From Edaphobacter aggregans (lineage in GTDB: Bacteria; Acidobacteriota; Terriglobia; Terriglobales; Acidobacteriaceae), in the NCBI RefSeq assembly GCF_003945235.1, contig NZ_RSDW01000001.1, forward strand, positions 3,600,001-3,632,000: a stretch of 32,000 bases of DNA, in the 5' to 3' direction. Below, piece by piece: positions 3,633-28,426 of the stretch. The notes under the pieces are model-generated. The model searched no databases. It saw only the letters and a list, made by a program, of their open reading frames with translations, and was not told the DNA's origin. A program made the translations under genes and the position numbers. The stretch's first letter is position 1. Every line of letters starts with the position of its first letter.

Positions 3633-4685
3633 ATGATTCTTGCTGGTGACGTCGGCGGCACAAAGGTGCACCTCGCTCTCTACGATTTCTCAAGCGGCAA
3701 ACTCCACGGCATCCGCGACCAGAAGTTCCCGGCCCACGAATTCACCGCACTCGATCAGATCGTCACCAAATTCCTCGCTGGCGACGACACCTGCCCCCGC
3801 GTCCACCACGCCGACATCCTCGCCACCTGCTTCGGTGTGCCCGGCCCCGTCCGCGAAGGCCGTCTCAAACTCACCAACCTCCCCTGGGTCCTCGACTGCA
3901 AAGAGCTCTCCAAGTCCCTCGGCATCCAACACGTCTTCCTCATCAACGACCTCGAAGCCAACGGCTACGGCATTCCGGAGCTAGCCGCCGACAAGATCTT
4001 CACCCTCTACGCCGGCGACGAATCCGCTGTCGGCCACCGCGGCCTCATCGCCGCCGGAACTGGCCTCGGCCAGGCGCTCCTCATCTGGGACGGCAAGCAC
4101 CACCGCCCTATCGCCTCCGAAGGCGGCCACTGCGACTTCGCCGCCCGCTCCACCCGCGAAATCGCTCTACTCGAGTACCTTCGTGCCCAGCTCAACGGTC
4201 GCGTCTCTTGGGAGCGCGTCGTCTCCGGCCTCGGCATCAAAAACATCTACACCTTCCTCCGCGACGTCGAAAAAATCAACGAACCCCAGTGGCTCCGCGA
4301 CCGCATGAAGGCCGAAGACCCCAACGCCGTCATAGGCCAGTGCGCCGAAGACGGCTCCAGCTTCCTGTGCTTCGAGACCATGAAGATCTTCGTCTCAGCC
4401 TACGGAGCCGAAACCGGCAATATCGCCCTCAAGGTCCTGGCCACCGGAGGCATGTACCTCGGCGGAGGCATCGCCCCCAAGATCATCAAGACCCTGCAGA
4501 ACGGCTTCTTCACCCAGGCCTTCCTCGACAAGGGCCGCCTCTCCCCGCTGCTCCAATCCATCCCTGTACGCGTCATCCTCGACGACACCTGCGCCCTCCT
4601 CGGAGCCGCCGCCTACGCCGAAGCCCGAGCCACCGAGCTAGGCAGCCAATCCGAACGCGCCGCCTCCCTCCAAACCGCCCTATAG
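3633..4685 (+). CDS. glk: glucokinase
   Basis: 350-aa ORF with the N-terminal sugar-kinase phosphate-1 motif LAGDVGGTKVHLAL. Length and Gly-rich segments are glucokinase-like (GTGLGQA, GGMYLGGGIAPK). A GGAGA SD precedes ATG 3633. It is the last gene of the zwf operon. Confidence 0.85.
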   Translation: MILAGDVGGTKVHLALYDFSSGKLHGIRDQKFPAHEFTALDQIVTKFLAGDDTCPRVHHADILATCFGVPGPVREGRLKLTNLPWVLDCKELSKSLGIQHVFLINDLEANGYGIPELAADKIFTLYAGDESAVGHRGLIAAGTGLGQALLIWDGKHHRPIASEGGHCDFAARSTREIALLEYLRAQLNGRVSWERVVSGLGIKNIYTFLRDVEKINEPQWLRDRMKAEDPNAVIGQCAEDGSSFLCFETMKIFVSAYGAETGNIALKVLATGGMYLGGGIAPKIIKTLQNGFFTQAFLDKGRLSPLLQSIPVRVILDDTCALLGAAAYAEARATELGSQSERAASLQTAL

Positions 4686-4726
4686 CCCTCACACCCCACT
4701 GCTATCTCAGTTACGGTCGACGATTG

Positions 4727-4845
4727 TCATTGCAGTTGCAATTGCGGCTGCAGTTGCTTTTCTTGTTGTCATCCCCGAAGGGGACCTGCTGTTGTCTTTG
4801 CAGTTGCTGTTGCTGTTGTCGTCCCCAACCCACCCATAAATCGTC
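4727..4845. repeat. Composite intergenic repeat R3, same family as R1
   Basis: GCAGTTGC-type 6/12-nt periodic tracts flank both sides. The core GTCATCCCCGAAGGGGACCTGCT at 4768-4790 matches 2574-2596 at 23/23. The CACCCATAAATCG tail parallels CACCATAAACTCG of R1. Confidence 0.7.
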
Positions 4846-5035
4846 CCTTGCGCAGTGGAGAGACCCCCGCATTTCGCTGTTGTTTGTTCTTCTCCCGACA
4901 AGGCCAAACCCCGTCAAGCCCGCAAGCACCATATCCCATTACTCATCAACAACATACCTGTGCCGAATCACCCTCGCCATCCAGCTATACTAGTTAAAGA
5001 ATCAAAAACAGCCCAAGCCATCAAAGCCCAATCGA

Positions 5036-5776: not shown

Positions 5777-5850
5777 TCGTCACAATCGATCCGCGTCCCG
5801 CGCCGCAACCCGCAAATAATCCCTCTCAATTGGGTATCGTCGAAAGATAT

Positions 5851-8538
5851 ATGTTGAAAGCCGGCCTCCGCAGGACCCTCCTCGCTCTATCCGCCCTCGC
5901 CCTCACAGCTATCAGCGCTCACGCCCAGCGCCTTCCCGGAGGAGCGGTCCCCGAGCACTACACCCTGGCGCTCACCCCCGACCTCCAGGCCGCCACCTTC
6001 ACCGGCAACGAGACCATCGACCTATTCCTCGGCTCCCCCAGCAAAACCATCACCCTCAACGCCGCCGAGATCAAAATCGCCTCCGTACAAGCCACATACT
6101 ATCCCCACGCGGTCAGCTACGTGACCAAGGGCGGTGCGGGCAAGCAGAATGAGTTCAGCGGCACCATCCCGGGCAAACCGTCTTTCGCTCTTGCCACCGT
6201 CACCTATGACGACGCTAAGGAACAAGCCACCTTCATCTTCCCGAACGAGCTTCCCGCAGGCAAGGTCACCCTCGACATCAGCTACACCGGAATCCTCAAC
6301 GACAAACTCCGCGGCTTCTACCTCTCCAAGACCAAGGCCCGCAACTACGCCGTAACCCAGTTCGAGCCCACCGACGCCCGCCGCGCCTTCCCCAGCTTCG
6401 ACGAGCCCGCCTACAAAGCCACCTTCGACATCGCCCTCACCGTCGACGCTGCCGACACCGTCATCTCCAACACGAACCAGATCGCCGACACGCCCGCCAC
6501 CCCCGGCAAGCATACCCTCAAGTTCGCCACCACACCCAAGATGTCCACCTACCTCGTGGCCTTCCTCGTAGGCGACTTCAAGTGCACCACTGGCAAATCC
6601 GACGGAGTCCCCATCCGCGCCTGCTCCACTCCCGACAAGGTCGACATGACCAAGTTCGCCGTCGAGTCAGCCGAGTACATCCTCCACTACTACAACACCT
6701 ACTTCGGCATTAAGTACCCCATGCCCAAGCTCGACATGGTCGCCCTACCCGACTTCGAAGCCGGCGCCATGGAGAACTTCGGCTGCATCACCTACCGCGA
6801 GACCGACCTCCTCGTCGACGCTAAGACAGCGTCGATCCCGGTGAAGAAGAACGTCGCTGAAGTCGTCGCCCACGAAATGGCGCACCAATGGTTCGGCGAC
6901 ATGGTCACCATGCAATGGTGGGACAACCTCTGGCTAAACGAGGGATTCGCCACCTGGATGGAGACCAAGCCCGTCGCCAAGTGGCATCCCGAGTGGAACA
7001 TCGCCCAGGACGACGCCCAGGAACTCGACAACACCCTCAATTACGACTCCCAGGCCACCACCCGCACCATCCGCGCCAAGGCCGAAACCCCGGGCGAGAT
7101 CAACGAGATGTTCGACGGTATCGCCTACGGCAAGGCAGGCGCCGTCCTCGGCATGGTCGAAAACTACCTAGGCGAAGAGACCTTCCGCCAGGGAGTTCAC
7201 AACTATCTCCAGGCACATCTCTACGCCAACGCCACCGCCGAAGACTTCTGGACCGCCCAGACCTCCAACTCCCATCTCCCAGTCGACAAGATCATGGAGA
7301 GCTTCGTCACCCAACCCGGCGTCCCGCTCCTTACCTTCAGCGATGCCTCGGCAAGCGGCGCACCTGTAGCGCAAAGCCGCTTCTTCCTCTCCGCACCGGC
7401 GAACGCCAGCACCACGCAGCAGTGGACCCTTCCCGTCTGCCTCAAGACCACCGGAAAGCCCATCTGCCGAGTCCTGAACGCGGGTGACTCCACCCTTCCC
7501 ATACCCGCAGACGCGCCGATGACGTTCTTCTACGCCAATGCCAACAGCAAAGGCTACTACCGCACGGCCTATACCCCGCAGCAGTTCAACGCCATCGTAG
7601 CCAAAGCCGAAACCGCCCTCACCCCACCCGAGCGCATCGGCCTTCTAGGTGATCGCTGGGTCCTCGTCCGCTCTGGTCAGGGCAACGTCGGCGACTACCT
7701 CAACCTAGTCCTCGCCCTCAAGCAAGACCCCAACGCTGCTGTTCTCGAAAACGCCTTCGGCAAAGTCAACACCATCGACGCTCGCATCGCCACCGACGAC
7801 GACCGCACCCAACTAGCTACCGTTCTCCACCGCGAGTTCAGCCCCATCTACATCGCTCTCGGCCAACCTTCGAAGAGCGACTCCTTCGACCGCCAGCAGC
7901 TCCGCGCTCTTCTCTTCGAAACACTCGGTGCCGCCAAAGATCCCGCAATCGTCAACGAAGCCCGCCAGATTGCTGACCGCGCCTTCGCTAATCCCGGTGG
8001 TAAGGACAAAACCCTCGACCCACTCCTGACCGACGCCGCTATTGCCATCGCCTCCCGCAACGGCGACGTCGCCTTCTACGAAAAAGTCCTCGCTGCCAGC
8101 AAGGATTCGAGCGACCCTGGCCAGCAGTCCGAAGCCCTTCGCACTCTCGCTCACTTCACCGACCCAGCCCTCGTCACCCGCACCCTCGACTACGCCGTCT
8201 CCGGTCAGGTCCGCAATCAGGACAGCTGGATTGTCCTCGCCATACTCCTCAACAATCGCGAAACCCGCGAACAGACCTGGACCTACATCCAGCAGAACTG
8301 GGACAAAGTCCACTCTCAATTCACCACCAACTCCGGCGTCCGCGTCGTTGCAGCCACAGGCTCCTTCTGCAACATCAACCAGCGCGACGAGGTCAAAAAC
8401 TTCTTCGCCACCCACAAGGTCGACGCCTCCGAACGCACTCTTTCGAAGGCCATCGACAGCATCAACGACTGCATCCATCTACGCGCCACACAGGAGCCCA
8501 GCCTTCACCAGTGGCTAGCGACTCAATCGAAACAATAG
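5851..8538 (+). CDS. pepN: secreted M1-family zinc aminopeptidase (aminopeptidase N-like)
   Basis: Contains the GAMEN exopeptidase motif and the [10 protein letters not shown]...WLNEGFA (HEXXH-X18-E) zinc site, followed by a long ERAP1-like helical C-terminal region. A signal peptide is present: [29 protein letters not shown] 5851 is preferred; the in-frame TTG at 5830 is an alternative start. Confidence 0.9.
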
Positions 8539-9873: not shown

Positions 9874-10019
9874 CCCGATTTGGCTTTGAACCGGTACCTT
9901 TACCGGTGGAGGCCTCGAAGTTAGGCCAAAGATGCTACCCCAAAAGTGCTATGTGGTTAATCCCTTCTCGCGTCGAGAATCAATCTCGGGTCAAGGACTT
10001 TTCCCAAATGAGGACAACA

Positions 10020-10220
10020 ATGAAAAAATCGTCTCTCTTGCTTTTCGGTCTCGTTCTCTTCTTTTCCGTTGCCCTCCCCCTCCATGCTTACGACGGAGCG
10101 GAAGGTTGCGTCAACTCCCCTGAAAATCCGACCGCCATCCTCGCCGCTGTGGGTTCTGCCGGGGCATTTTTCGTCTCGGCCCGTGCTCGCATCAAGGCTC
10201 GTCGCGACTCAACCAAGTAA
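10020..10220 (+). CDS. small secreted protein with a PEP-CTERM-like (P-E-x-P-T) exosortase sorting signal
   Basis: Signal peptide MKKSSLLLFGLVLFFSVALPLHA, then YDGAEGCVNS, then PENPT, then the TM helix AILAAVGSAGAFFVSA, then the basic tail RARIKARRDSTK. A GAGGA SD lies 5 nt upstream of ATG 10020, and ATG 10008 is an alternative start. The gene ends 35 nt upstream of the exosortase gene. The listed 9870 ORF start is an unsupported N-terminal extension. Confidence 0.7.
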   Translation: MKKSSLLLFGLVLFFSVALPLHAYDGAEGCVNSPENPTAILAAVGSAGAFFVSARARIKARRDSTK

Positions 10221-10255
10221 TACCCCCAGCAAGTTGTCTCGAATCGGAATCCTTT

Positions 10256-11911
10256 ATGTCGACTCTTCCTGCGGCTGATCTTGGCCCTTATCCAATGCCA
10301 CGGGTGGCGAGACTATCGCCGCCCTACGCCGCAGGCTTCGCAGCCATCCTCGCGATCCTCGGCGTATGTTCCATTTGGTCCACTGCAGCTGCACTATGGA
10401 CGCTTTGGAGCATGGATGCCCTCAAGTCGATCGGCATGATGGTCCCCCTGGTCAGCCTCGTCCTCATACTCCGAGTCTGGCGCTCCCAAAACTGGCAGAT
10501 GGAAGGAAGCTGGTGGGGTCTGGTCGTTCTCACCGTCACTATCGCTGCGGTTCACATACGCGATCAGGCAGTTCTTATCCTTGTCGTCTCCCCAAAATGG
10601 GCGGTCTACTTCCCCCCCCACTCGCTTGTAGCCTTCGCCTACGGTGCAGGTGTGGTTCTCCTCTTTGGAGGTCCACGCCTCTTCCGCGCGGCGTTGTTCC
10701 CCATCGTTCTTCTCTGGTTCGTCAATCCCATCCCTCACTTCTTCAATGTTCTCGTCGATCTCCCACTGCAGCGCGTCTCGGCCCATGTAGCCCGGGCGTT
10801 CGCCATCGCACTAGGACAGCCGCTCTCGCCCGATCAGATGCGCCTCATGTTCACGCCGACCTTCGGAATGTTCATCGCCCCTGGCTGCAATGGCATTCGC
10901 GGAGCCGTCACCATGGGCTTCATCGCACTCATTGCTGGATACGTCTACCGCTTCCGCTGGTATGCGCACGCAGCAGTTGTTGCGGGAGCTGTTCTCCTTG
11001 GCTATCTATTCAACTTTGTCCGCCTCTGCACCCTGGTCCTCTATTACATCGTCGCGCTGCACTTCCACTGGCTGCGCTCCAGGGCTGAGATGGGCGATTA
11101 CATTATCGGGGCCTGCCTCTTCCTAGTTGCTACGCTCCTGCTCTTTTACGTCGTCCGCAGACTCGGAGAATCACCCCGACAGACCAAGCCTGTCTTGTCG
11201 TCCTCGCCATTTTCCTCGACCTCTCGGTGGTCATACAAACTGCGTTTCGCCGCTATGTTTCTGATCGCCACCTTCGGCTGCTACGGTTTCGCACGCGCCG
11301 TCGTCATCGCCGAGGCTACCGGCGAATTCGCACAGATCCGAGCCGATCAAAGAGCACCCGGCAAGTTTCCCCCTCGCATGGGCGCCTACACTCTCGTTCG
11401 CACATGGAACGAGAACCTCAACACCGGTACGCTCCTCTTTCACTGGGCCGAGTATGCCCCAGTCAACGGCGGAGCGCACATTAACCTCGGCATCTCTCCC
11501 GTCCTGGGCACACACGACACGCTCATCTGCCACTCCGCGCGCGGAGACGATCCCATCTGGCAAAACGAACTCACCACAAGCACCGCTGGCCAACCAAACG
11601 TCAGCTTCAACGGGGCGATGTTCAACAACAGCACATCACTCTCCCTTGAGGCCACCACCGTCTGCAGCGGTTCGTCCTGCGGCGAGTACGCCACCGATCG
11701 CTCTCACTTCGGTTTCGTCTACAGCAAGCCGAACTCTCAATCTCTGCTCACACAGGATCCACAGAGGCCCATCCCCATCATGCTTCGTACTGAACTGGGC
11801 GATGACTCGTTACCTGCAGACTATGCTCGCCAGCAAATGTCTGCTTCCCTTAGCACCTTCCTCGCCTCGGTCGACCTCAATGAACTCACTCGACCCTACC
11901 GCCACCGATAG
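10256..11911 (+). CDS. exosortase-family transpeptidase with a fused C-terminal TM segment and EpsI-like periplasmic domain
   Basis: The N-terminal ~300 aa is polytopic and carries the exosortase catalytic pattern. This comprises Cys in FIAPGCNGIRGAV, Asn/Arg in YLFNFVRLCTLV, and His in the following helix (ALHFHW). After an extra TM (LRFAAMFLIATFGCYGF) comes a ~230-aa soluble domain. Its FPPRMGAYTL...W and LGTHDTLICHSARGDDPIW segments resemble EpsI (exosortase-associated) domains. The exact subfamily cannot be assigned by eye. Confidence 0.8.
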   Translation: MSTLPAADLGPYPMPRVARLSPPYAAGFAAILAILGVCSIWSTAAALWTLWSMDALKSIGMMVPLVSLVLILRVWRSQNWQMEGSWWGLVVLTVTIAAVHIRDQAVLILVVSPKWAVYFPPHSLVAFAYGAGVVLLFGGPRLFRAALFPIVLLWFVNPIPHFFNVLVDLPLQRVSAHVARAFAIALGQPLSPDQMRLMFTPTFGMFIAPGCNGIRGAVTMGFIALIAGYVYRFRWYAHAAVVAGAVLLGYLFNFVRLCTLVLYYIVALHFHWLRSRAEMGDYIIGACLFLVATLLLFYVVRRLGESPRQTKPVLSSSPFSSTSRWSYKLRFAAMFLIATFGCYGFARAVVIAEATGEFAQIRADQRAPGKFPPRMGAYTLVRTWNENLNTGTLLFHWAEYAPVNGGAHINLGISPVLGTHDTLICHSARGDDPIWQNELTTSTAGQPNVSFNGAMFNNSTSLSLEATTVCSGSSCGEYATDRSHFGFVYSKPNSQSLLTQDPQRPIPIMLRTELGDDSLPADYARQQMSASLSTFLASVDLNELTRPYRHR

Positions 11912-11934: not shown

Positions 11935-13893
11935 TTGCCTCTAGTGAAATTCAATTCGCGTAGCCTCCTTGCTCCCCTCGCCGCGATCTCTGCCGGCATT
12001 CTTTCCTTGTCTCTCGCGGGTTGCGCTACGGGAATCTCCACAACCCCTACGCCCCCAACCACTCCAACACCTCCGACGACTCCAACTACACCTGTTGCGC
12101 CACCTGCCAACCCAGGCGTCTCCTTCAGCGGCAAGGTGACGGCCGGTTCACAGCCCATCGCCGGAGCAACCATCCAGGTCTACGCCGCTGGCACCACCGG
12201 CAATGGATCCGCTCCCACAGTGCTTCTCTCGACGCCCCAGACCACCGATGCCACTGGAGCCTTCACCGTGCCGGCAGCCTATCCCTGCCCGGCTAGCTCC
12301 TCACAGTTATACGTCGTCGCCCGTGGCGGCAATACCGGAACCTCTACTTCACCCAACTCCGCCATAACCTTGGCCACGGTAGTCGGGCCATGCAACCAGG
12401 TCACAGCCTCCAGCCAGTTCGTCCTTAATGAAGTCACCACCGTCGCCACCGTCTGGGGTTTGTCCCAGTTCCTGGCCACAGGAGCCAGCCTCGGCGCCTC
12501 ATCGACCAACACACAGGGCCTAACCAACGCCTTCGCCACCGTCGCTAATCTCGCCAATCTCACCACAGGCACATCTCCCGGAGCAGCTTTTCCAAGCAAC
12601 GGAATCTCTCCCGCGGCAAAGGTCAACACCCTGGCCAACCTGATCAACACATGCACCGCAGCTACTACTGACCTCACTCCCTGCACCAACCTGTTCACCG
12701 CGGCAACCCCGGCCGGAGCCTCAGCGCCCACCAACACTCTCGACGCCGCGCTGAACCTCGTCCGCAATCCGGGAACAAATGTTGCCGCACTCTACAAGCA
12801 ATCCACCGCCAGCAACGCCTTCACTCCCGCCCTCACCACCACCCCCGCCGACTGGACGCTCTTCATTAGCTACACCGGCGGTGGTCTCAACGAGCCCGGA
12901 GCTCTCGGCGTCGACTCCACCGGCAACATCTGGGTCTCCAACTACAGCGACTCCACCGGCACCTTCGGCATCGCATCCAAGTTCTCCCCCACCGGAAGTC
13001 CCATCTTCCCCACTGGCATCAAAGCCAACGGCCTCAGCGACTCCTACGGCCTCGCCATCGACGCCAGTGACAACGTCTGGATCCCCTATGAACATAGCCC
13101 GAGTGGTCTCGGCGCGGTCAGCGTTCTCAACTCAAACGGTCAGTCGATCTCAGGCGCAGCCGGCTACACCGCCGGAAACCTCTACTATCCCATCGCCGCC
13201 GCCATCGACCCCAACGGCAACGCTTGGGTCATCAACTACGGCAACGCTCACCTCACTCTCTACTCAAGCACCGGCCAGGTCCTCTCCGGCACCACCGGCT
13301 TCTTCGCCCCTTCCTTCGCCTTCCCCGCCGCCATCGTCGTCGACGCTAACCACAATGCCTGGATCGGCGACGAGAACGACGGCTTCATCACCCGCATCTC
13401 CTCTGACGGCACGCAAAACCTTCCCGTCTCCTGCTGCAACAGTCCCAACGGCCTCGCCATCGATCAGCGCGGCTACGTCTGGGCCGCCAACTTCGCCGGC
13501 GACAGCATCAGTCAGATCTCCGGTTCCGGTACCGTCGTCTCCAATGGCTACACCGGCGCAGGCCTCGACCACCCTCAAGGCATCGCCGTCGACGGGGCCG
13601 GCACCCTCTGGATCGCCAACTATCGCAGCCCAGCCCTCACTCAACTGGCAGGATCGGCCTCCTCCAACCCCGGCGCAGCGCTGTCACCGGCCACCGGCTG
13701 GGCCCCCGACGCAGCACTGCCACCACCCCCCGGATCGAGTACTCCCGTCAAACTCCTCGAGGCCTTCGCCGTCGTCATCGACGCGAGCGGCAATCTCTGG
13801 GTCACCAACTTCGGCACCAACACCCTCACCGAGTACATCGGTCTCGCCGTACCCATCAAGACCCCTCTAATCGGCCCGCCCCAAATTCCCTAG
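11935..13893 (+). CDS. NHL-repeat beta-propeller lipoprotein
   Basis: A lipobox signal (LSLSLAGC) is followed by a Pro/Thr linker (TTPTPPTTPTPPTTPTTPVAPP) and a beta-sandwich-like segment. At least six NHL-type blades follow (GLAIDASDNVWI, AAIDPNGNAWVINY, AIVVDANHNAWIGD, GLAIDQRGYVWAANF, GIAVDGAGTLWIANY, AVVIDASGNLWVTNF). The start is TTG 11935 or GTG 11944. Confidence 0.8.
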   Translation: MPLVKFNSRSLLAPLAAISAGILSLSLAGCATGISTTPTPPTTPTPPTTPTTPVAPPANPGVSFSGKVTAGSQPIAGATIQVYAAGTTGNGSAPTVLLSTPQTTDATGAFTVPAAYPCPASSSQLYVVARGGNTGTSTSPNSAITLATVVGPCNQVTASSQFVLNEVTTVATVWGLSQFLATGASLGASSTNTQGLTNAFATVANLANLTTGTSPGAAFPSNGISPAAKVNTLANLINTCTAATTDLTPCTNLFTAATPAGASAPTNTLDAALNLVRNPGTNVAALYKQSTASNAFTPALTTTPADWTLFISYTGGGLNEPGALGVDSTGNIWVSNYSDSTGTFGIASKFSPTGSPIFPTGIKANGLSDSYGLAIDASDNVWIPYEHSPSGLGAVSVLNSNGQSISGAAGYTAGNLYYPIAAAIDPNGNAWVINYGNAHLTLYSSTGQVLSGTTGFFAPSFAFPAAIVVDANHNAWIGDENDGFITRISSDGTQNLPVSCCNSPNGLAIDQRGYVWAANFAGDSISQISGSGTVVSNGYTGAGLDHPQGIAVDGAGTLWIANYRSPALTQLAGSASSNPGAALSPATGWAPDAALPPPPGSSTPVKLLEAFAVVIDASGNLWVTNFGTNTLTEYIGLAVPIKTPLIGPPQIP

Positions 13894-13956
13894 CCGAACC
13901 GCTCCATCCTTTTGCATTCCTGGGCCAGCACTTTCGTAGCCTCTAAAAATGAGGTA

Positions 13957-13980
13957 GAACCAATAGTTTCCTATTGGTTC
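13957..13980. promoter_or_regulatory. perfect inverted repeat GAACCAATAG-TTTC-CTATTGGTTC (candidate operator or weak terminator hairpin)
   Basis: A 10/10-bp palindrome with a 4-nt spacer, 64 nt after the NHL gene stop and ~210-270 nt upstream of the receptor gene. The CCAAT half-site motif recurs as ATTGG (14024-14028) and CCAATAG (14040-14046). Confidence 0.35.
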
Positions 13981-14094
13981 TTCGCGGCGTATCCCCTGCT
14001 CTTCATCAAAGGCCGGCCCCGTAATTGGCAATCTTCCAGCCAATAGCACGCATCCCCGAAAAGGCACAACAGTAAAAAAATTACATTCCACCTC

Positions 14095-14122
14095 TTGACA
14101 GACGTTGTCGCAAAGGCAGAAT
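14095..14122 (+). promoter_or_regulatory. candidate sigma70-type promoter for the TonB-dependent receptor gene
   Basis: TTGACA at 14095-14100, a 16-nt spacer, then CAGAAT at 14117-14122, within the relatively AT-rich gap upstream of the gene. Pattern match only. Confidence 0.25.
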
Positions 14123-24019: not shown

Positions 24020-25252
24020 TTAAAGTTGCAGCCGAACCTTCAATCTCGTAAAAACCGCAGCTATCGCGAGAATGAATGCAGTGAAGAGTGCCGATCGTAT
24101 CGCTCCGGGCCACCCATAGTTGAGATGCGTTTCGAAGTACGTGATGCCTGCCAAGGCGAGGATGAAGTAGTAAAAGTCTGGCAGCAGGTAGGTCAGCAAG
24201 GTGTTCGAGCCGGCGGGACGAGCGAAGAAGGCCCATGCGGTTTGCTTCTTCACGTCGCAGATCCAGTAGAGTGCGGTGAATATTAAGACTGCGGCTCCGA
24301 TGCTGTAGAGACACCATGTAGAGGTTGCTCTGATTTTGGAGATGCCTAGCGGGGTGAGGAGCCATCCGGCTAGCAGGGTTGAGAAGGCGAATGCGAAGCC
24401 GAGAAGGGTTTTTGGGCGAAGTGTCTGCCAACGGTGATTGCCGAGAAAGATGACGGAAGTGACGACGCCTGCCATGGTGATGCAGGGCATGGCTCCGTTG
24501 CTGAATGGCCAGAAGTAGAGTGGGAGATGATGAGTGAAAGTGATCCACTTTGCTGTGCAGAGGCTGTTGAACGTCAACAGTGTGATAAACCATGCAAGCG
24601 GAAACCAGAGCCAACGACGTGTCGGAATATAGAGGATTGCTACTGCAAGATAGGTGTAGCCGATGAGGCCGAGGATCTCCGGGTAGGAGCCGTCGATCCA
24701 AGCGACGTGTCCGTCGTGTGTGGTACGGCGAAAGATGGCGAACATTGCAATGGTCAGGACAAAGCCGACGATGCGTAGCCAGCGATGCAGCGTTGCGTGG
24801 CGTTCTCCGTTATAGACGCTGAGGAATAGTGCTGCGCCTGTGAGAGCCAGAATCGCCCAGGCGTTGGGGTTGATGTGCATGAGGGCGCGATCGCCGCTTT
24901 CGGCGTTGGCTAAGATGAGCCCGAGAACGATGAGGCTGGCGGCTCGAAAAAGAACATGGAAGCAAAGGGATGGCAGGGATGGGTTCTTCTTTAATCGTTG
25001 GCGGATGGCGAGGGGAATCGACAGGCCGACGATGAAGAGGAAGAAGGGGTAGACCATGTCGACATAGGTCATGGCGTCGACGTTGGCCTTCATGTGGTAG
25101 TTCCACCAGGGCAGGCCGCGGACGCTCGCCAGATCGTTGACGAAGATCATCACTACCATCGTGAGACCACGGAAGATATCGATGGAGGCCAGGCGTGAGG
25201 TGGCGGATTTCTCTGTGAGGGTGACTGATGAAGTTTGCGTGGCCGGGGTCAT
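24020..25252 (-). CDS. polytopic membrane acyltransferase-like protein, HGSNAT/DUF5009 (COG4299-like) family
   Basis: 410-aa ORF with ~11 hydrophobic helices. The family-typical N-terminus is RLASIDIFRGLTMVVMIFVNDL...WWNY..H...DAMTYVDMVYPFFLFIVG. The start overlaps the GH18 stop (ATGA at 25249-25252). Confidence 0.7.
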   Translation of the reverse strand: MTPATQTSSVTLTEKSATSRLASIDIFRGLTMVVMIFVNDLASVRGLPWWNYHMKANVDAMTYVDMVYPFFLFIVGLSIPLAIRQRLKKNPSLPSLCFHVLFRAASLIVLGLILANAESGDRALMHINPNAWAILALTGAALFLSVYNGERHATLHRWLRIVGFVLTIAMFAIFRRTTHDGHVAWIDGSYPEILGLIGYTYLAVAILYIPTRRWLWFPLAWFITLLTFNSLCTAKWITFTHHLPLYFWPFSNGAMPCITMAGVVTSVIFLGNHRWQTLRPKTLLGFAFAFSTLLAGWLLTPLGISKIRATSTWCLYSIGAAVLIFTALYWICDVKKQTAWAFFARPAGSNTLLTYLLPDFYYFILALAGITYFETHLNYGWPGAIRSALFTAFILAIAAVFTRLKVRLQL

Positions 25253-26418
25253 TTCGTCCCATTATGCACGTATGGCGTTTTCTTCAGGCCCGTATCGATG
25301 GCGTCGAGCAGCGCGCCTGTGGGATCGCCGGAGTAATCCCAGAACATCATGCCGCCGAGTTTGTGGTCGACCACATACTTGCTCTTCAGGGCAAGGGATT
25401 CGGGATCTTCATACGAGACGAAGATTTTCTTTTCAGGGTTGTAGAGATAGGGGACCGAAGCGACGGGGTCCCAGTAACGTGTGTAGCCGTTGTTCAGCAT
25501 GGTGGTGGTGATGTTGCCATACCTCGCGAAGGCATTGGGAACCGGCTTGCCTGCCTGAAATAGGCCGTGATCTGTATCGGATACCTGGCCCCATACATGT
25601 CCATAGAAGGGGACGCCGAGAACGATCTTCGCTGTAGGGACGCCAGCTTGTTCGAACTCCTGAACGGACCTGTTACCCGAGATTTTTTTGGGGTCGGCGG
25701 GATTCGTGAAGAGAGGAGCATGGTGTGCGGCGATTGCGTCGGAGGAGGGCTCGTAGTAGTCATAGGCCATCAGGTTGACCGTATCGACGTATTTTTGTGC
25801 CTTACCCATTTCGGTATGCGCCAAAAAATCAGATGAGGCGCCAGTTGCGATCGTGAGGTAGAGTTGGCGGTGAAGCTTCTTTTCCTGCTGGTTGAAGCGA
25901 TGTCGAAGCTCTTTGAGGAGTAGCGTGTAGTTCTGCTTGTCCTCGGGGCGGAAATGATTGCCAGCGCCTACCATGCCTGGGTACTCCCAGTCGATGTCGA
26001 GTCCGTCGAGATGATTGTGATCGACGAACTCCACGACGCTTTCGATGAATAGATTGCGGCTCTTTTTGGTGAAGGCCATGTCGGAGAAGTTGCCCGACCA
26101 AGCCCATCCTCCGACGGAGACGAGTACAGTGAGGGAAGGATTTTCCTGCTTTAGTGCAACGAGCGCTGCTAGGTTTTTGTCGTCGTTGGTGAAGCCGTTG
26201 ATGATGCGGCCACCTTGCAGGTTGGCGAAGGCGTAGTTGATGCGGGTCAGCTTCTGTGCGGCGATCTGACCGGGCTGGATTAGATCGTTTCGCTGAAACA
26301 CATAGGCGACTATAACGGGCTTTGGAGTTTGAGCGGGTGCTGCGGCGAGTAAAACGGGACTGCAGGATAGGCCACAGATGAGCAGCAGCCTCTGTATACT
26401 CAGTCGATTTCTATGCAA
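25249..26418 (-). CDS. secreted glycoside hydrolase family 18 (chitinase-like)
   Basis: A signal peptide (LLLICGLSCSPVLLAAAPAQ) is present, with the catalytic DxxDxDxE motif LDGLDIDWEYPG. Further GH18 blocks are INYAFA, SVGGW, NLMAYDY and GGMMFWDYSGD. Confidence 0.9.
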   Translation of the reverse strand: MHRNRLSIQRLLLICGLSCSPVLLAAAPAQTPKPVIVAYVFQRNDLIQPGQIAAQKLTRINYAFANLQGGRIINGFTNDDKNLAALVALKQENPSLTVLVSVGGWAWSGNFSDMAFTKKSRNLFIESVVEFVDHNHLDGLDIDWEYPGMVGAGNHFRPEDKQNYTLLLKELRHRFNQQEKKLHRQLYLTIATGASSDFLAHTEMGKAQKYVDTVNLMAYDYYEPSSDAIAAHHAPLFTNPADPKKISGNRSVQEFEQAGVPTAKIVLGVPFYGHVWGQVSDTDHGLFQAGKPVPNAFARYGNITTTMLNNGYTRYWDPVASVPYLYNPEKKIFVSYEDPESLALKSKYVVDHKLGGMMFWDYSGDPTGALLDAIDTGLKKTPYVHNGTK

Positions 26419-26608
26419 AGCGCGTGAACTCCTTTTTGAGGAACATATCTTCTGTTTTCATTAGACGTCAGTTCTTCGTAATCTGTTTGGAAGACATGGC
26501 CAGTGTAGATTCATACTGTAGGATGTCGCGAGTGGCGGCAGGCATCGAGTTTGTCGGTTAGGCCGCAACGGTTGTTCTAAAGAGGGTAAAAAGATCAAAC
26601 GCATCTGG

Positions 26609-28426
26609 ATGCAGGTTCTAGCAGTTTGTTGTATGGGATCGTTTGGCTCTGCGTGCATGGGCCAGTTGCATGTCCTGGTGGATCATGTTGGATATGAGAC
26701 GCGCGCGCCCAAGCAGGCGCTTGTGGTTGGCGCGGACTGGGATCATCCTCAAAAGTTCGTGCTGATTGATACGGTGACGGGCAAGACAGTGTTGACAGGA
26801 ACTCTGACTCAAGGCGGCCAGGTGGATTCGTGGGGTGGGCGTGTCTTCTGGATCGCTGATTTTTCTTCGTGGCAAAAGGCTGGTCACTATGCGATTCAGA
26901 CGCAATCAGCTGCGGGCGAAGTAAGTTCGTGTTCGTTCGATATTGATGATGATCTTTTGGAACGTAATACGCTTTCGAATGTGGTCTTTTACTTAAAAGG
27001 ACAACGAGCTAGCGGGCTGATGGATCAAGCGGACCGTCATCTTCCGTTGCCTGCGGGCCAGTCAGGCTTTGTGGATGTGCACGGTGGCTGGTATGACGCT
27101 ACAGGCGACTACGGGATTCACTTGTCGCATCAGAATTTGACGTCCTATTTCAATCCTCAGCAGGTACCGCTTGTGGCGTGGACGCTGTTGAAGAGTTATC
27201 GCGTGCTTGAGGCGAGGCGCGATGACAACTTCAGTGAGTATGAGCGGCGCATGCTGGATGAGGGTCTATTTGGCGCTGACTATCTGGTGCGCATCAAACG
27301 GCCCCATGGCTCGTTCTTCGAAAGCATTACGGCGCCTGGGAAGGATAAGTTGCCGCAAGATCGAGCGATTGGTAATCCGAACTGGCGCACTCAGATCAAG
27401 AAAGATGCCTCGGATAGCACCGAGCGTATGCAGCGTGCTGAAAGGCCCGAGGACTTTGAGGCGAGCTTTCGTGCTGGTGGAGGTATGGCTATCGCCGCGC
27501 TGGCATTGGCCAGTACTATGCCTGCCGACGGGGACTTTACTCGCGCTGACTATCGGCGTGCTGCCGAAGAGGCGTTTCAGTTTCTAGATAAGCACAATCG
27601 CGAACTGTTGAACGATGGGAAGGAAAATATCCTCGACGACTACTGCGCGCTGATGGCGGCTACGGAGCTGTATCGCGCAACGAAGCAGGAGACTTACCGG
27701 GCTGCTGCAGATCGACGCGCTGCCCATCTGATGGCTCGGCTTACGACCATTGAAGGACGTCGTGACTCCTGGCGTGCGGACGACGGGGTGCGACCCTACT
27801 TTCATCCCTCGGATGCGGGCTTACCAGTTGTCAGTTTGCTTGAATATGCGCAGATCGCTACTTCGGCGGTGCAAAAACAAGTGCACGACGCGGTGGAGCG
27901 GTCGCTGCGTTTCGAGCTTGGTGTAACAGGCGAGGTCAACAATCCGTTCGGATACGCGCGGCAGTTGGTGAGAATGGGAGATGGTAAGGTTCGCACTGCA
28001 TTCTTCTTTCCTCACGATACGGAAGCGGCTCCGTGGTGGCAGGGTGAGAACGCTCGGCTAGCTTCGCTCGCCGCTGCGGCTCGGATGGCTACGCCGCTCT
28101 TTGATAAGGACCCTGCGTTTCAGTTGCAGCTCGAAGGGTATGCCTGGAACCAGTTGCACTGGATCCTGGGACGGAATCCTTTTGACACGAGCATGCTGAT
28201 GGGAAGCGGTCACGGGAATGCGCCGTACATGTTCTTCCGTTCGTATAAGTACACGAGCGCTCCGGGAGCCATTGTCAACGGCATTACTGCCGCCAACGGT
28301 GATGAAGACGGCATCGCTTTCAACGAAGGATATGCTGTGACCGGCAAGGATGAAGACTGGCGCTGGACGGAAGAGTGGCTGCCACATGCAGCCTGGTATC
28401 TGTACGCTGTCAGCCTTCCGCACTGA
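26609..28426 (+). CDS. divergent glycoside hydrolase family 9-like protein (Ig-like N-domain plus (alpha/alpha)6 domain)
   Basis: The N-terminal CelD_N-like segment reads VDHVGYETRAPKQALV...DFSSWQKAGHYAI. GH9-like blocks are GGWYDATGDYG (canonical GGWxDAGD with one inserted residue), ILGRNPFDTSMLMGSGHGNAP and a C-terminal W.WTEEW. The canonical PHHR is replaced by MFFR. No convincing signal peptide. Confidence 0.6.
   Translation: MQVLAVCCMGSFGSACMGQLHVLVDHVGYETRAPKQALVVGADWDHPQKFVLIDTVTGKTVLTGTLTQGGQVDSWGGRVFWIADFSSWQKAGHYAIQTQSAAGEVSSCSFDIDDDLLERNTLSNVVFYLKGQRASGLMDQADRHLPLPAGQSGFVDVHGGWYDATGDYGIHLSHQNLTSYFNPQQVPLVAWTLLKSYRVLEARRDDNFSEYERRMLDEGLFGADYLVRIKRPHGSFFESITAPGKDKLPQDRAIGNPNWRTQIKKDASDSTERMQRAERPEDFEASFRAGGGMAIAALALASTMPADGDFTRADYRRAAEEAFQFLDKHNRELLNDGKENILDDYCALMAATELYRATKQETYRAAADRRAAHLMARLTTIEGRRDSWRADDGVRPYFHPSDAGLPVVSLLEYAQIATSAVQKQVHDAVERSLRFELGVTGEVNNPFGYARQLVRMGDGKVRTAFFFPHDTEAAPWWQGENARLASLAAAARMATPLFDKDPAFQLQLEGYAWNQLHWILGRNPFDTSMLMGSGHGNAPYMFFRSYKYTSAPGAIVNGITAANGDEDGIAFNEGYAVTGKDEDWRWTEEWLPHAAWYLYAVSLPH

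Follow-up and report, generated by a model that had tools for sequence, protein, structure and literature searches.

An exosortase J cassette of Edaphobacter aggregans with an essentially cargo-less PExPT-CTERM mini-protein and a linked NHL lipoprotein

Why should the gene for an exosortase be preceded by a gene whose product consists of little else than two targeting signals? This question is raised by a stretch of 32,000 nucleotides (nt) from Edaphobacter aggregans (contig NZ_RSDW01000001.1, positions 3,600,001 to 3,632,000), hereafter the window, in which genes for a 66-amino-acid (aa) mini-protein, a 551-aa exosortase and an NHL beta-propeller lipoprotein follow one another. A preliminary description of the same DNA had seen here an exosortase whose neighbour resembles a substrate with hardly any cargo, and both proteins bear this out. 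The mini-protein matches TIGR04200 ("targ_of_XrtJ / PExPT-CTERM protein") with 84.8 bits against a cut-off of 40 (E 2.5e-24) over the whole model (profile positions 1-57 of 57), and the 551-aa product passes TIGR04199 ("exosortase J") with 654.2 bits against a cut-off of 200 (residues 30-548, aligned to positions 2-522 of the 522-position profile) as well as PF09721 (123.5 bits, residues 35-302). The locus thus represents an ordinary case of the exosortase J (XrtJ)/PExPT-CTERM system of Acidobacteriaceae, both families of which are curated.

The pairing itself is already known, since RefSeq names both proteins for this species: WP_125485978.1, "PExPT-CTERM protein [Edaphobacter aggregans]", is the exact 66-aa sequence, and the NCBI entry "exosortase J [Edaphobacter aggregans]" is 100% identical to the 551-aa product. 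The newer Pfam family PF27850 ("Targ_of_XrtJ") is assigned to relatives of the mini-protein, the label of the Joint Genome Institute (JGI) for the family is "XrtJ-associated TM-motif-TM protein" (TM, transmembrane), and the cargo-less nature of the mini-protein is already reflected in the curators' names. Of the two names that had been offered for this pairing, "PExPT-CTERM" was right and "exosortase T" has to give way to exosortase J. What is added here is the NHL lipoprotein as a third component, a split form of XrtJ, family members that are not adjacent to XrtJ, and the removal of a major facilitator superfamily (MFS) gene from the module. A literature search found no experimental paper on XrtJ or on PExPT-CTERM proteins in this sense. 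The main features of the cassette, in window coordinates, are as follows.

10020-10220, + strand: PExPT-CTERM mini-protein gene (ATG 10020, stop 10218-10220, 66 aa)
10020-10088, + strand: predicted signal peptide, residues 1-23 (MKK, h-region and P-L-H-A, read by eye)
10089-10133, + strand: exposed segment YDGAEG-C-VN-SPENPT, residues 24-38 (Cys30 codon 10107-10109)
10134-10217, + strand: C-terminal TM helix (residues 39-54) and basic tail RARIKARRDSTK (residues 55-66), placed from the sequence and the family alignment
10256-11911, + strand: exosortase J, 551 aa (TIGR04199 and PF09721)
10343-11170, + strand: exosortase domain, approximately residues 30-305 (Cys211 codon 10886-10888, Arg256 codon 11021-11023)
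11225-11908, + strand: extra TM helix (approximately residues 324-355) and periplasmic C-terminal domain (residues 360-551), placed from hydropathy and secondary structure
11935-13893, + strand: NHL beta-propeller lipoprotein, 652 aa (PF01436 NHL, lipobox L-A-G-C, Pro/Thr linker)

A mini-protein under constraint

The mini-protein is composed, in order, of MKKSSLLLFGLVLFFSVALPLHA, the exposed segment YDGAEG-C-VN-SPENPT, the hydrophobic stretch AILAAVGSAGAFFVSA (residues 39-54) and the tail RARIKARRDSTK. Residues 24-33 read YDGAEGCVNS and residues 34-38 read PENPT, so that the motif stands in the context S-P-E-N-P-T. Signal peptidase I is predicted to cut after Ala23, and the P-L-[HY]-[AG] / Q signal-peptide junction is kept across the family alignment. 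By analogy with the signals of other exosortases and of archaeosortases, the C-terminal helix and tail would be the portion removed by XrtJ.

Related loci from Acidobacteriaceae, 72 in all, were compared, with upstream sequence present in 68 (in L047 and L056 a contig end cuts the locus short). In 65 of these 68 loci the gene immediately before XrtJ is a PExPT mini-open reading frame (mini-ORF), so that the two are syntenic in nearly all of them. Over the stretch that begins with the mini-protein Cys, minor alleles average a fraction of 0.07 at first, 0.04 at second and 0.50 at third codon positions, and for the invariant residues C, S, P, E, N, P and T every synonymous codon is in use. The mini-protein gene is real and under strong purifying selection. 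A database search for relatives returned 418 clusters; the 120 of them listed are all 61-116 aa long, with 113 at 61-70 aa, and no large protein with a PExPT signal was seen among these 120 or in the 72 related loci. It could still be held that the mini-ORF, which is very short and has no match in a Pfam-A scan, arose by chance or is what decay has left of a larger PEP-CTERM protein at its C-terminal end. The hidden Markov model (HMM) E-value of 2.5e-24, the small size of every listed relative in a family of 418 clusters, a conserved signal peptide and Shine-Dalgarno sequence of its own, and variability concentrated at third codon positions exclude this reading for practical purposes. The decayed-fragment variant, which the preliminary description had itself raised, is rejected because no large protein with the PExPT signal was seen in the related loci or among the listed relatives.

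The invariant residues of the family, 63 unique copies of which were aligned, are C, S-P-E-N-P-T, L-A and G. The spacing G-C-x-x-S-P-E-N-P-T is constant in the 65 genome loci, in 120 cluster representatives and in about 100 metagenome copies, the last collected by a pattern scan that itself demanded the core motif. Gln is predicted to begin the mature protein in 101 of 116 representatives, and in 85 of the 116 the passenger ahead of S-P-E is six residues long (Q-x-G-C-x-x). With this fixed spacing and a six-residue passenger, the exposed part amounts to little more than a single conserved motif of 12 residues; the whole exposed part of the mini-protein is the conserved motif (Q/Y..G-C-x-x-S-P-E-N-P-T) and not a tag on a cargo. 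The window mini-protein and its closest relatives are atypical in having a 10-residue passenger and Tyr or Asp at position +1.

The invariant Cys also invites a reading of the mini-protein as a lipoprotein. For the window copy this is ruled out by inspection of the sequence, in which A-E-G-C does not fit the lipobox pattern [LVI][ASTVI][GAS]C and sits six residues past the h-region; the family norm, A-Q-x-G-C, likewise misses the pattern. A canonical lipobox stands right before the invariant Cys in a few variants (LGGC in L134 near 1760, LIGC in L106 near 8213 and LTGC in L145 near 654), and in these lineages the Cys could be a lipidated N-terminus. Divergent mini-proteins of the PENPS type carry His-rich passengers, namely AHHHGC (L127, near 1343), AHPHHLRHGC (L167, near 13080) and DKHDWERPWDGQHEDWGGQHEDWDGRGC (L081, 1284-1568). 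These His/Asp/Trp-rich passengers, which include HEDW repeats in L081, resemble metal-binding segments.

Exosortase J and its separable C-terminal domain

The preliminary description had credited the 551-aa protein with the Cys/Arg/His motifs of exosortases. The Cys and Arg parts hold: C211 (in PGCNGIRG), R215, R256 and C258 (in NFxRLC) are invariant in 62 XrtJ sequences. The histidines of "HFHW", on the other hand, are not conserved, with H269 present in 66% and H271 in 21%. The C-terminal domain of about 190 residues has its own set of invariant positions in the same 62 sequences (H420, C425, H426, R429, C470 and C475), and H420, C425, G430, C470 and C475 stay invariant when fused and stand-alone homologues of the domain are considered together.

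This C-terminal domain had been called EpsI-like, which is apt for its architecture and finds no counterpart in sequence models. The EpsI profiles PF11984, TIGR02914 and NF045609 gave no match to fused XrtJ C-domains at E<=10, Pfam gave none at E<=0.01 for 10 stand-alone homologues, and with NCBIfam at E<=10 one of 20 C-domain sequences matched EpsI_type_B, at E 0.16. EpsI homology of the C-terminal half was accordingly dropped, nothing significant having been found in Pfam or NCBIfam scans of fused or stand-alone forms. A PDB sequence search with XrtJ gave no match, and plasmids screened by tblastn with the exosortase domain, in order to obtain an EpsI sequence, contained none either. AlphaFold2 (AF2) modelling of the C-domain from a diverse alignment gave an antiparallel sheet with C-terminal helices (predicted local distance difference test, pLDDT, 78.8; predicted template modelling score, pTM, 0.78), and the full-length XrtJ model was poor (pLDDT 59.6). 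Foldseek comparison of the C-domain model with the PDB returned nothing significant (best E 0.05, template modelling score <= 0.35). The partner domain of XrtJ is EpsI-like in architecture and not detectably so in sequence.

A profile search of 1.84 billion representatives with the C-domain returned 142 relatives. Ten long ones were examined and all are XrtJ. Relatives of about 210-262 aa are stand-alone proteins with an N-terminal TM helix, annotated as "hypothetical" and devoid of Pfam domains, and their genes lie directly after genes for exosortases of about 305 aa, with a 4-nt overlap. Against TIGR04199 these shorter exosortases score 260-280 bits, over the N-terminal half of the model. 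Split-system C-domain genes are found at 5001-5714 in L073, 2413-3060 in L075, 6001-6789 in L077, 556-1206 in L079 and 2529-3188 in L081, and one split system that is followed by an NHL gene has a C-domain with only about 22% identity. Since the C-domain also occurs as a separate adjacent gene, XrtJ is an exosortase fused to a dedicated partner, and its C-terminal domain, on these sequence comparisons, is a separable module, an addition beyond the curated annotation.

No mini-proteins were found beside the split systems L073, L075 and L077. A further split XrtJ, on the contig of P0353 (JGI 3300047160), stands in the order FG-GAP propeller, Targ_of_XrtJ, exosortase, C-domain protein, MJ0711_N protein and PlsC-type acyltransferase, that is, with a different propeller family and with a lipid acyltransferase nearby.

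The NHL lipoprotein, the operon and mini-proteins elsewhere

An NHL lipoprotein gene was found by tblastn downstream of XrtJ in 64 of the 72 loci, nearly always starting no more than some tens of nucleotides past the stop codon of XrtJ, and encoding a lipobox. In the family alignment C118, C153, C240 and C250 are conserved and a C-terminal ...TP...P is invariant. The association extends to a split XrtJ system (L079 and L080), which is followed by a 655-aa NHL homologue that is 35% identical over its full length. The NHL lipoprotein, which had been suggested as a possible member of the module, is therefore its third component. The other two suggested neighbours fared less well in the same tblastn survey. 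The MFS gene upstream is found in 7 of the 72 loci and is ruled out as a module member; the TonB-dependent receptor, in 37 of the 72, is weakly linked, and its gene is set apart from the NHL gene by a palindrome and a promoter-like site. One metagenome-assembled genome (CAVZGJ01) holds two XrtJ loci (L015 and L032), each with its own mini-protein, and in L015 the NHL-like gene is upstream of the mini-protein instead of downstream of XrtJ.

The gaps between the three genes, 35 nt from mini-gene to XrtJ and 23 nt from XrtJ to the NHL gene, are as first described, and two conserved signals precede the mini-gene.

9942-9981, + strand: conserved upstream blocks (invariant columns in 8 aligned loci)
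10009-10016, + strand: Shine-Dalgarno sequence TGAGGACA, invariant in 8 aligned loci, 4 nt before the ATG at 10020

The upstream region contains the block AAAAGTGCTATG at 9942-9953 and a second, -35-like block at 9971-9981, CGTCGAGAATC, in place of which most relatives have CGTTGACTTTC. That AAAAGTGCTATG and the TTGAC-containing block are kept across genera suggests a shared promoter or operator, and the blocks at 9942-9981 are probably the promoter or operator of the operon; a sigma-70 consensus scan found no promoter-like site upstream of the mini-ORF. The conserved GAGGA core of the Shine-Dalgarno sequence (10010-10014, 5 nt before the ATG) favours a start at ATG 10020 over ATG 10008. No terminator-like site or attenuator was found between the mini-protein, XrtJ and NHL genes. 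A palindrome with 11-bp arms (AGAACCAATAG GAAA CTATTGGTTCT) lies at 13956-13981, between the NHL and TonB-dependent receptor genes, and a TTGACA/CAGAAT promoter-like site at 14095-14122 stands ahead of the receptor gene. For these reasons the three genes look like one operon, transcribed in the order mini-protein, XrtJ and NHL lipoprotein, and the receptor gene looks like a separate transcription unit.

Mini-proteins are not confined to such operons. A core-motif pattern scan of metagenome contigs gave 120 loci (L082-L201) with about 101 bona fide mini-proteins between them, and XrtJ follows only 34 of these mini-proteins. At least 22 adjoin a gene for an NHL lipoprotein of the same family without XrtJ, in flanks long enough to judge; in 11 the NHL gene comes first, in 8 the mini-gene does, and in 3 there is an NHL gene on both sides. 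In 11 further loci an NHL gene precedes the mini-gene and the downstream side is beyond the sequence. L087 (1-6193) is a tandem array of two NHL-mini units with no XrtJ nearby, and L140 (1923-4167) and L172 (1238-3600) likewise hold NHL-adjacent mini-genes without XrtJ. Other mini-proteins come after a 1188-aa NHL+Big_3_5 or a 1214-aa pro-kumamolisin+Big_3_5 protein, and some mini-genes face a convergent NHL gene. Ten mini-proteins sampled without an adjacent XrtJ, mostly NHL-adjacent, all score above the TIGR04200 cut-off (46-97 bits), and JGI names them as members of the family. The family is therefore not strictly one target beside one enzyme: a dedicated, always-adjacent target, as the family name implies, is true of the window locus and not of the metagenome sample, and the picture of one enzyme with one substrate that the preliminary description implied is incomplete. 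The most constant neighbour of the mini-protein is an NHL-type secreted protein.

Among the remaining genes of the window are zwf/pgl/gnd, ComEC and a Kdo hydroxylase; exopolysaccharide (EPS) genes are absent from it, and Rfam and tRNA scans of it were empty. A secreted M1-family aminopeptidase with a signal peptide is encoded at 5830-8538, and M1 peptidases were found upstream of the cassette in 48 of the 72 loci (tblastn); its co-occurrence with a conserved N-terminal Gln in the mini-proteins, for which pyroglutamate protection is possible, could be either significant or fortuitous. A 447-aa ORF at 3650-4993 has no Pfam match, an unusually low G+C content at third codon positions (GC3) of 0.48 against 0.7-0.85 in its neighbours, and homologues ahead of the M1 peptidase gene in 51 of the 72 loci. 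A glycoside hydrolase (GH) cluster at 24020-28426, comprising DUF5009, GH18 and GH9 with CelD_N, is apparently unrelated to the cassette.

Proposed processing, rival explanations and known systems

For the function of the cassette we lean, with a little better than even confidence, to a reading in which the mini-protein is cleaved to a Cys-containing peptide that is transferred to an acceptor, with the NHL lipoprotein as its functional partner. The mini-protein would be exported by Sec, lose its leader to signal peptidase I and be held in the inner membrane by its C-terminal helix and Arg cluster. XrtJ, through Cys211 and Arg256, would then cut inside S-P-E-N-P-T, form an acyl-enzyme and discard the anchor, leaving a peptide of 8-12 residues whose single thiol is invariant. 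If archaeosortase A and rhombosortase are a guide, its new C-terminus would most likely be handed to an envelope acceptor in preference to plain hydrolysis. The periplasmic domain of XrtJ, with its invariant His/Cys/Cys/Cys, may be positioned where G-C-x-x-S of the substrate could be read. The peptide would act jointly with the co-encoded NHL lipoprotein, which is proposed as the partner because the NHL family is the most consistent genomic partner of the mini-proteins, even without an adjacent XrtJ.

Several observations weigh against this reading. Three XrtJ loci (L044, L062 and L066) have no adjacent mini-protein, and many mini-proteins lie far from any XrtJ gene, for which reason the link between enzyme and substrate is one of co-occurrence only. 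The generic PEP-CTERM profile TIGR02595 does not match the mini-protein at E<=1, and no His is more than 90% conserved in the exosortase domain (residues 1-330). The window holds no EPS or lipid-synthesis genes that could point to an acceptor. The four conserved non-lipobox Cys of the NHL family are even in number and lend no support to a disulfide link with the peptide; the idea of a disulfide adaptor, for which no odd Cys is left over, was discarded.

The proximity of mini-genes to genes for secreted proteins has led us to consider that the mini-protein is a split sorting signal, a detachable anchor for an adjacent large secreted protein (NHL lipoprotein, NHL/Ig-like protein or sedolisin) to which it would be coupled through its Cys or by XrtJ-catalysed ligation, so that cargo and PEP-CTERM-type signal are separate polypeptides. 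This would account for mini-proteins immediately before or after NHL genes, including the tandem array in L087, and for those after the 1188-aa and 1214-aa Big_3_5 proteins, and it has a precedent in cis in the cyanobacterial NHL-type proteins ScyD/E/F, which bear PEP-CTERM and depend on cyanoexosortase B (PMC12188702). We nevertheless hold it to be unlikely, as the NHL proteins have a lipobox anchor of their own, their four conserved cysteines probably form two disulfides, a fused NHL-PExPT protein was not seen among about 100 copies, and there is no known chemistry to join the two proteins. About equally improbable, or a shade more so, is an Agr-like maturation, in which XrtJ would cut between P and E and the invariant Cys, four residues upstream, would capture the thioester to give a small diffusible cyclic peptide in which a tail of three residues (Q-x-G) precedes a thiolactone ring of five (C-x-x-S-P). 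The NHL lipoproteins would then act as its cognate receptors or binding proteins, and paralogous mini-proteins as alternative precursors. The Cys-to-motif spacing, fixed in every copy, the usual 3-residue tail, the confinement of variability to the tail and ring positions 2-3, the apparent presence of several precursor genes per XrtJ gene and a window context that is not EPS-related all suit this proposal. However, AgrB/AgrD homology is absent (a Pfam scan of XrtJ gave no AgrB match), the invariant ring residues S-P leave scant room for specificity, the locus has no sensor kinase, the P/E cut position is presumed and the peptide would still have an outer membrane to cross.

Less probable again is an unconsumed TM-motif-TM hairpin, in which the mini-protein would be a pseudo-substrate or regulatory subunit bound to XrtJ and the real substrates would be elsewhere. 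The lack of cargo, the JGI family name and the place of the mini-gene at the head of the operon, behind a strong Shine-Dalgarno sequence, fit such a role, but the N-terminus looks like a classic signal peptide, with a site of the A-x-A type followed by a conserved Gln at +1, the genes of many copies stand apart from XrtJ, the tripartite C-terminal layout is that of a cleaved sorting signal, and other PExPT-bearing proteins were not found in the 72 related loci or the 120 listed relatives. A more speculative extension, to which we give a similarly small chance, makes XrtJ a peptide-maturation enzyme and the mini-proteins leader-core-follower precursors, with the modified Cys core recognised by cognate NHL lipoproteins. 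The core of 8-12 residues may be released as a C-x-x-S-P thiolactone, as in Agr, or in another C-terminally derivatised form, and the NHL lipoprotein genes may sit in co-amplified cassettes. If true, this would amount to an exosortase-based peptide signalling system, or one resembling ribosomally synthesized and post-translationally modified peptides, in Gram-negative soil Acidobacteria.

Whichever reading is taken, the XrtJ/PExPT system is widespread in one of the most abundant soil phyla, and a substrate with a mature part of about 8-12 residues is the most tractable for mass spectrometry on the cut site, transpeptidation and the acceptor. The NHL link, the separable His/Cys/Cys/Cys domain and the multiple copies of the mini-protein furnish concrete testable hypotheses about this system.

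Set beside known systems, the window locus belongs to the exosortase J (TIGR04199)/PExPT-CTERM (TIGR04200, PF27850) system with scores far above the cut-offs, and differs from a typical member in its passenger of 10 residues, where 6 is the norm, and in its predicted mature N-terminus, which is Tyr where Gln is usual. With the XrtA/PEP-CTERM/EpsI system (TIGR03109, TIGR02595, PF11984/TIGR02914) it shares the superfamily PF09721, the tripartite C-terminal signal and an accessory TM-anchored periplasmic protein, separate or fused. XrtA systems, however, have many large substrates, whereas those of XrtJ are tiny and cargo-less; moreover, the PEP-CTERM HMM misses the mini-protein, the EpsI models miss the accessory domain and there are no EPS genes. 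Archaeosortase A (ArtA), which acts on PGF-CTERM proteins, belongs to an enzyme family homologous to XrtJ, and in that system the loss of the TM anchor at the C-terminus is coupled with the covalent attachment of a lipid (PMC7157517). The ArtA substrates, in contrast, are large S-layer and surface glycoproteins, and the XrtJ locus has no linked lipid-synthesis genes.

The AgrB/AgrD system resembles the cassette in that its precursor is small and starts with a leader, has a short core in which one Cys is conserved, and loses its C-terminal part to a polytopic membrane Cys protease. The product would be of similar size (8-9-mer), and a 3-residue tail plus C-x-x-S-P would mimic the layout of the autoinducing peptide (AIP) (PMC9388083). 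The AgrD follower is a soluble acidic tail, whereas that of the mini-protein is a TM helix, and there is no sequence homology; thiolactone formation by the XrtJ system is pure conjecture. A sortase-like Cys/Arg/His mechanism has been proposed for enzymes of this kind, along with dedicated one-to-one systems (bioRxiv 10.1101/2023.06.07.544157). JDVT-CTERM/MrtJ-type systems (Haft 2023 preprint) likewise have a co-operonic enzyme and target and an invariant Cys near the signature motif. They differ from the XrtJ system in that their enzymes are CPBP/Rce1-type proteases, their targets have real cargo domains and the Cys lies inside the motif, where it is thought to be lipid-modified. Lastly, ScyD, ScyE and ScyF with cyanoexosortase B provide a case of NHL-type periplasmic proteins functionally tied to an exosortase (PMC12188702), and the window NHL protein gives weak HMM matches to the ScyE and ScyF models. 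In ScyD/E/F the sorting signal lies within the NHL protein, whereas in the XrtJ locus the signal is a separate gene and the NHL protein is a lipoprotein.

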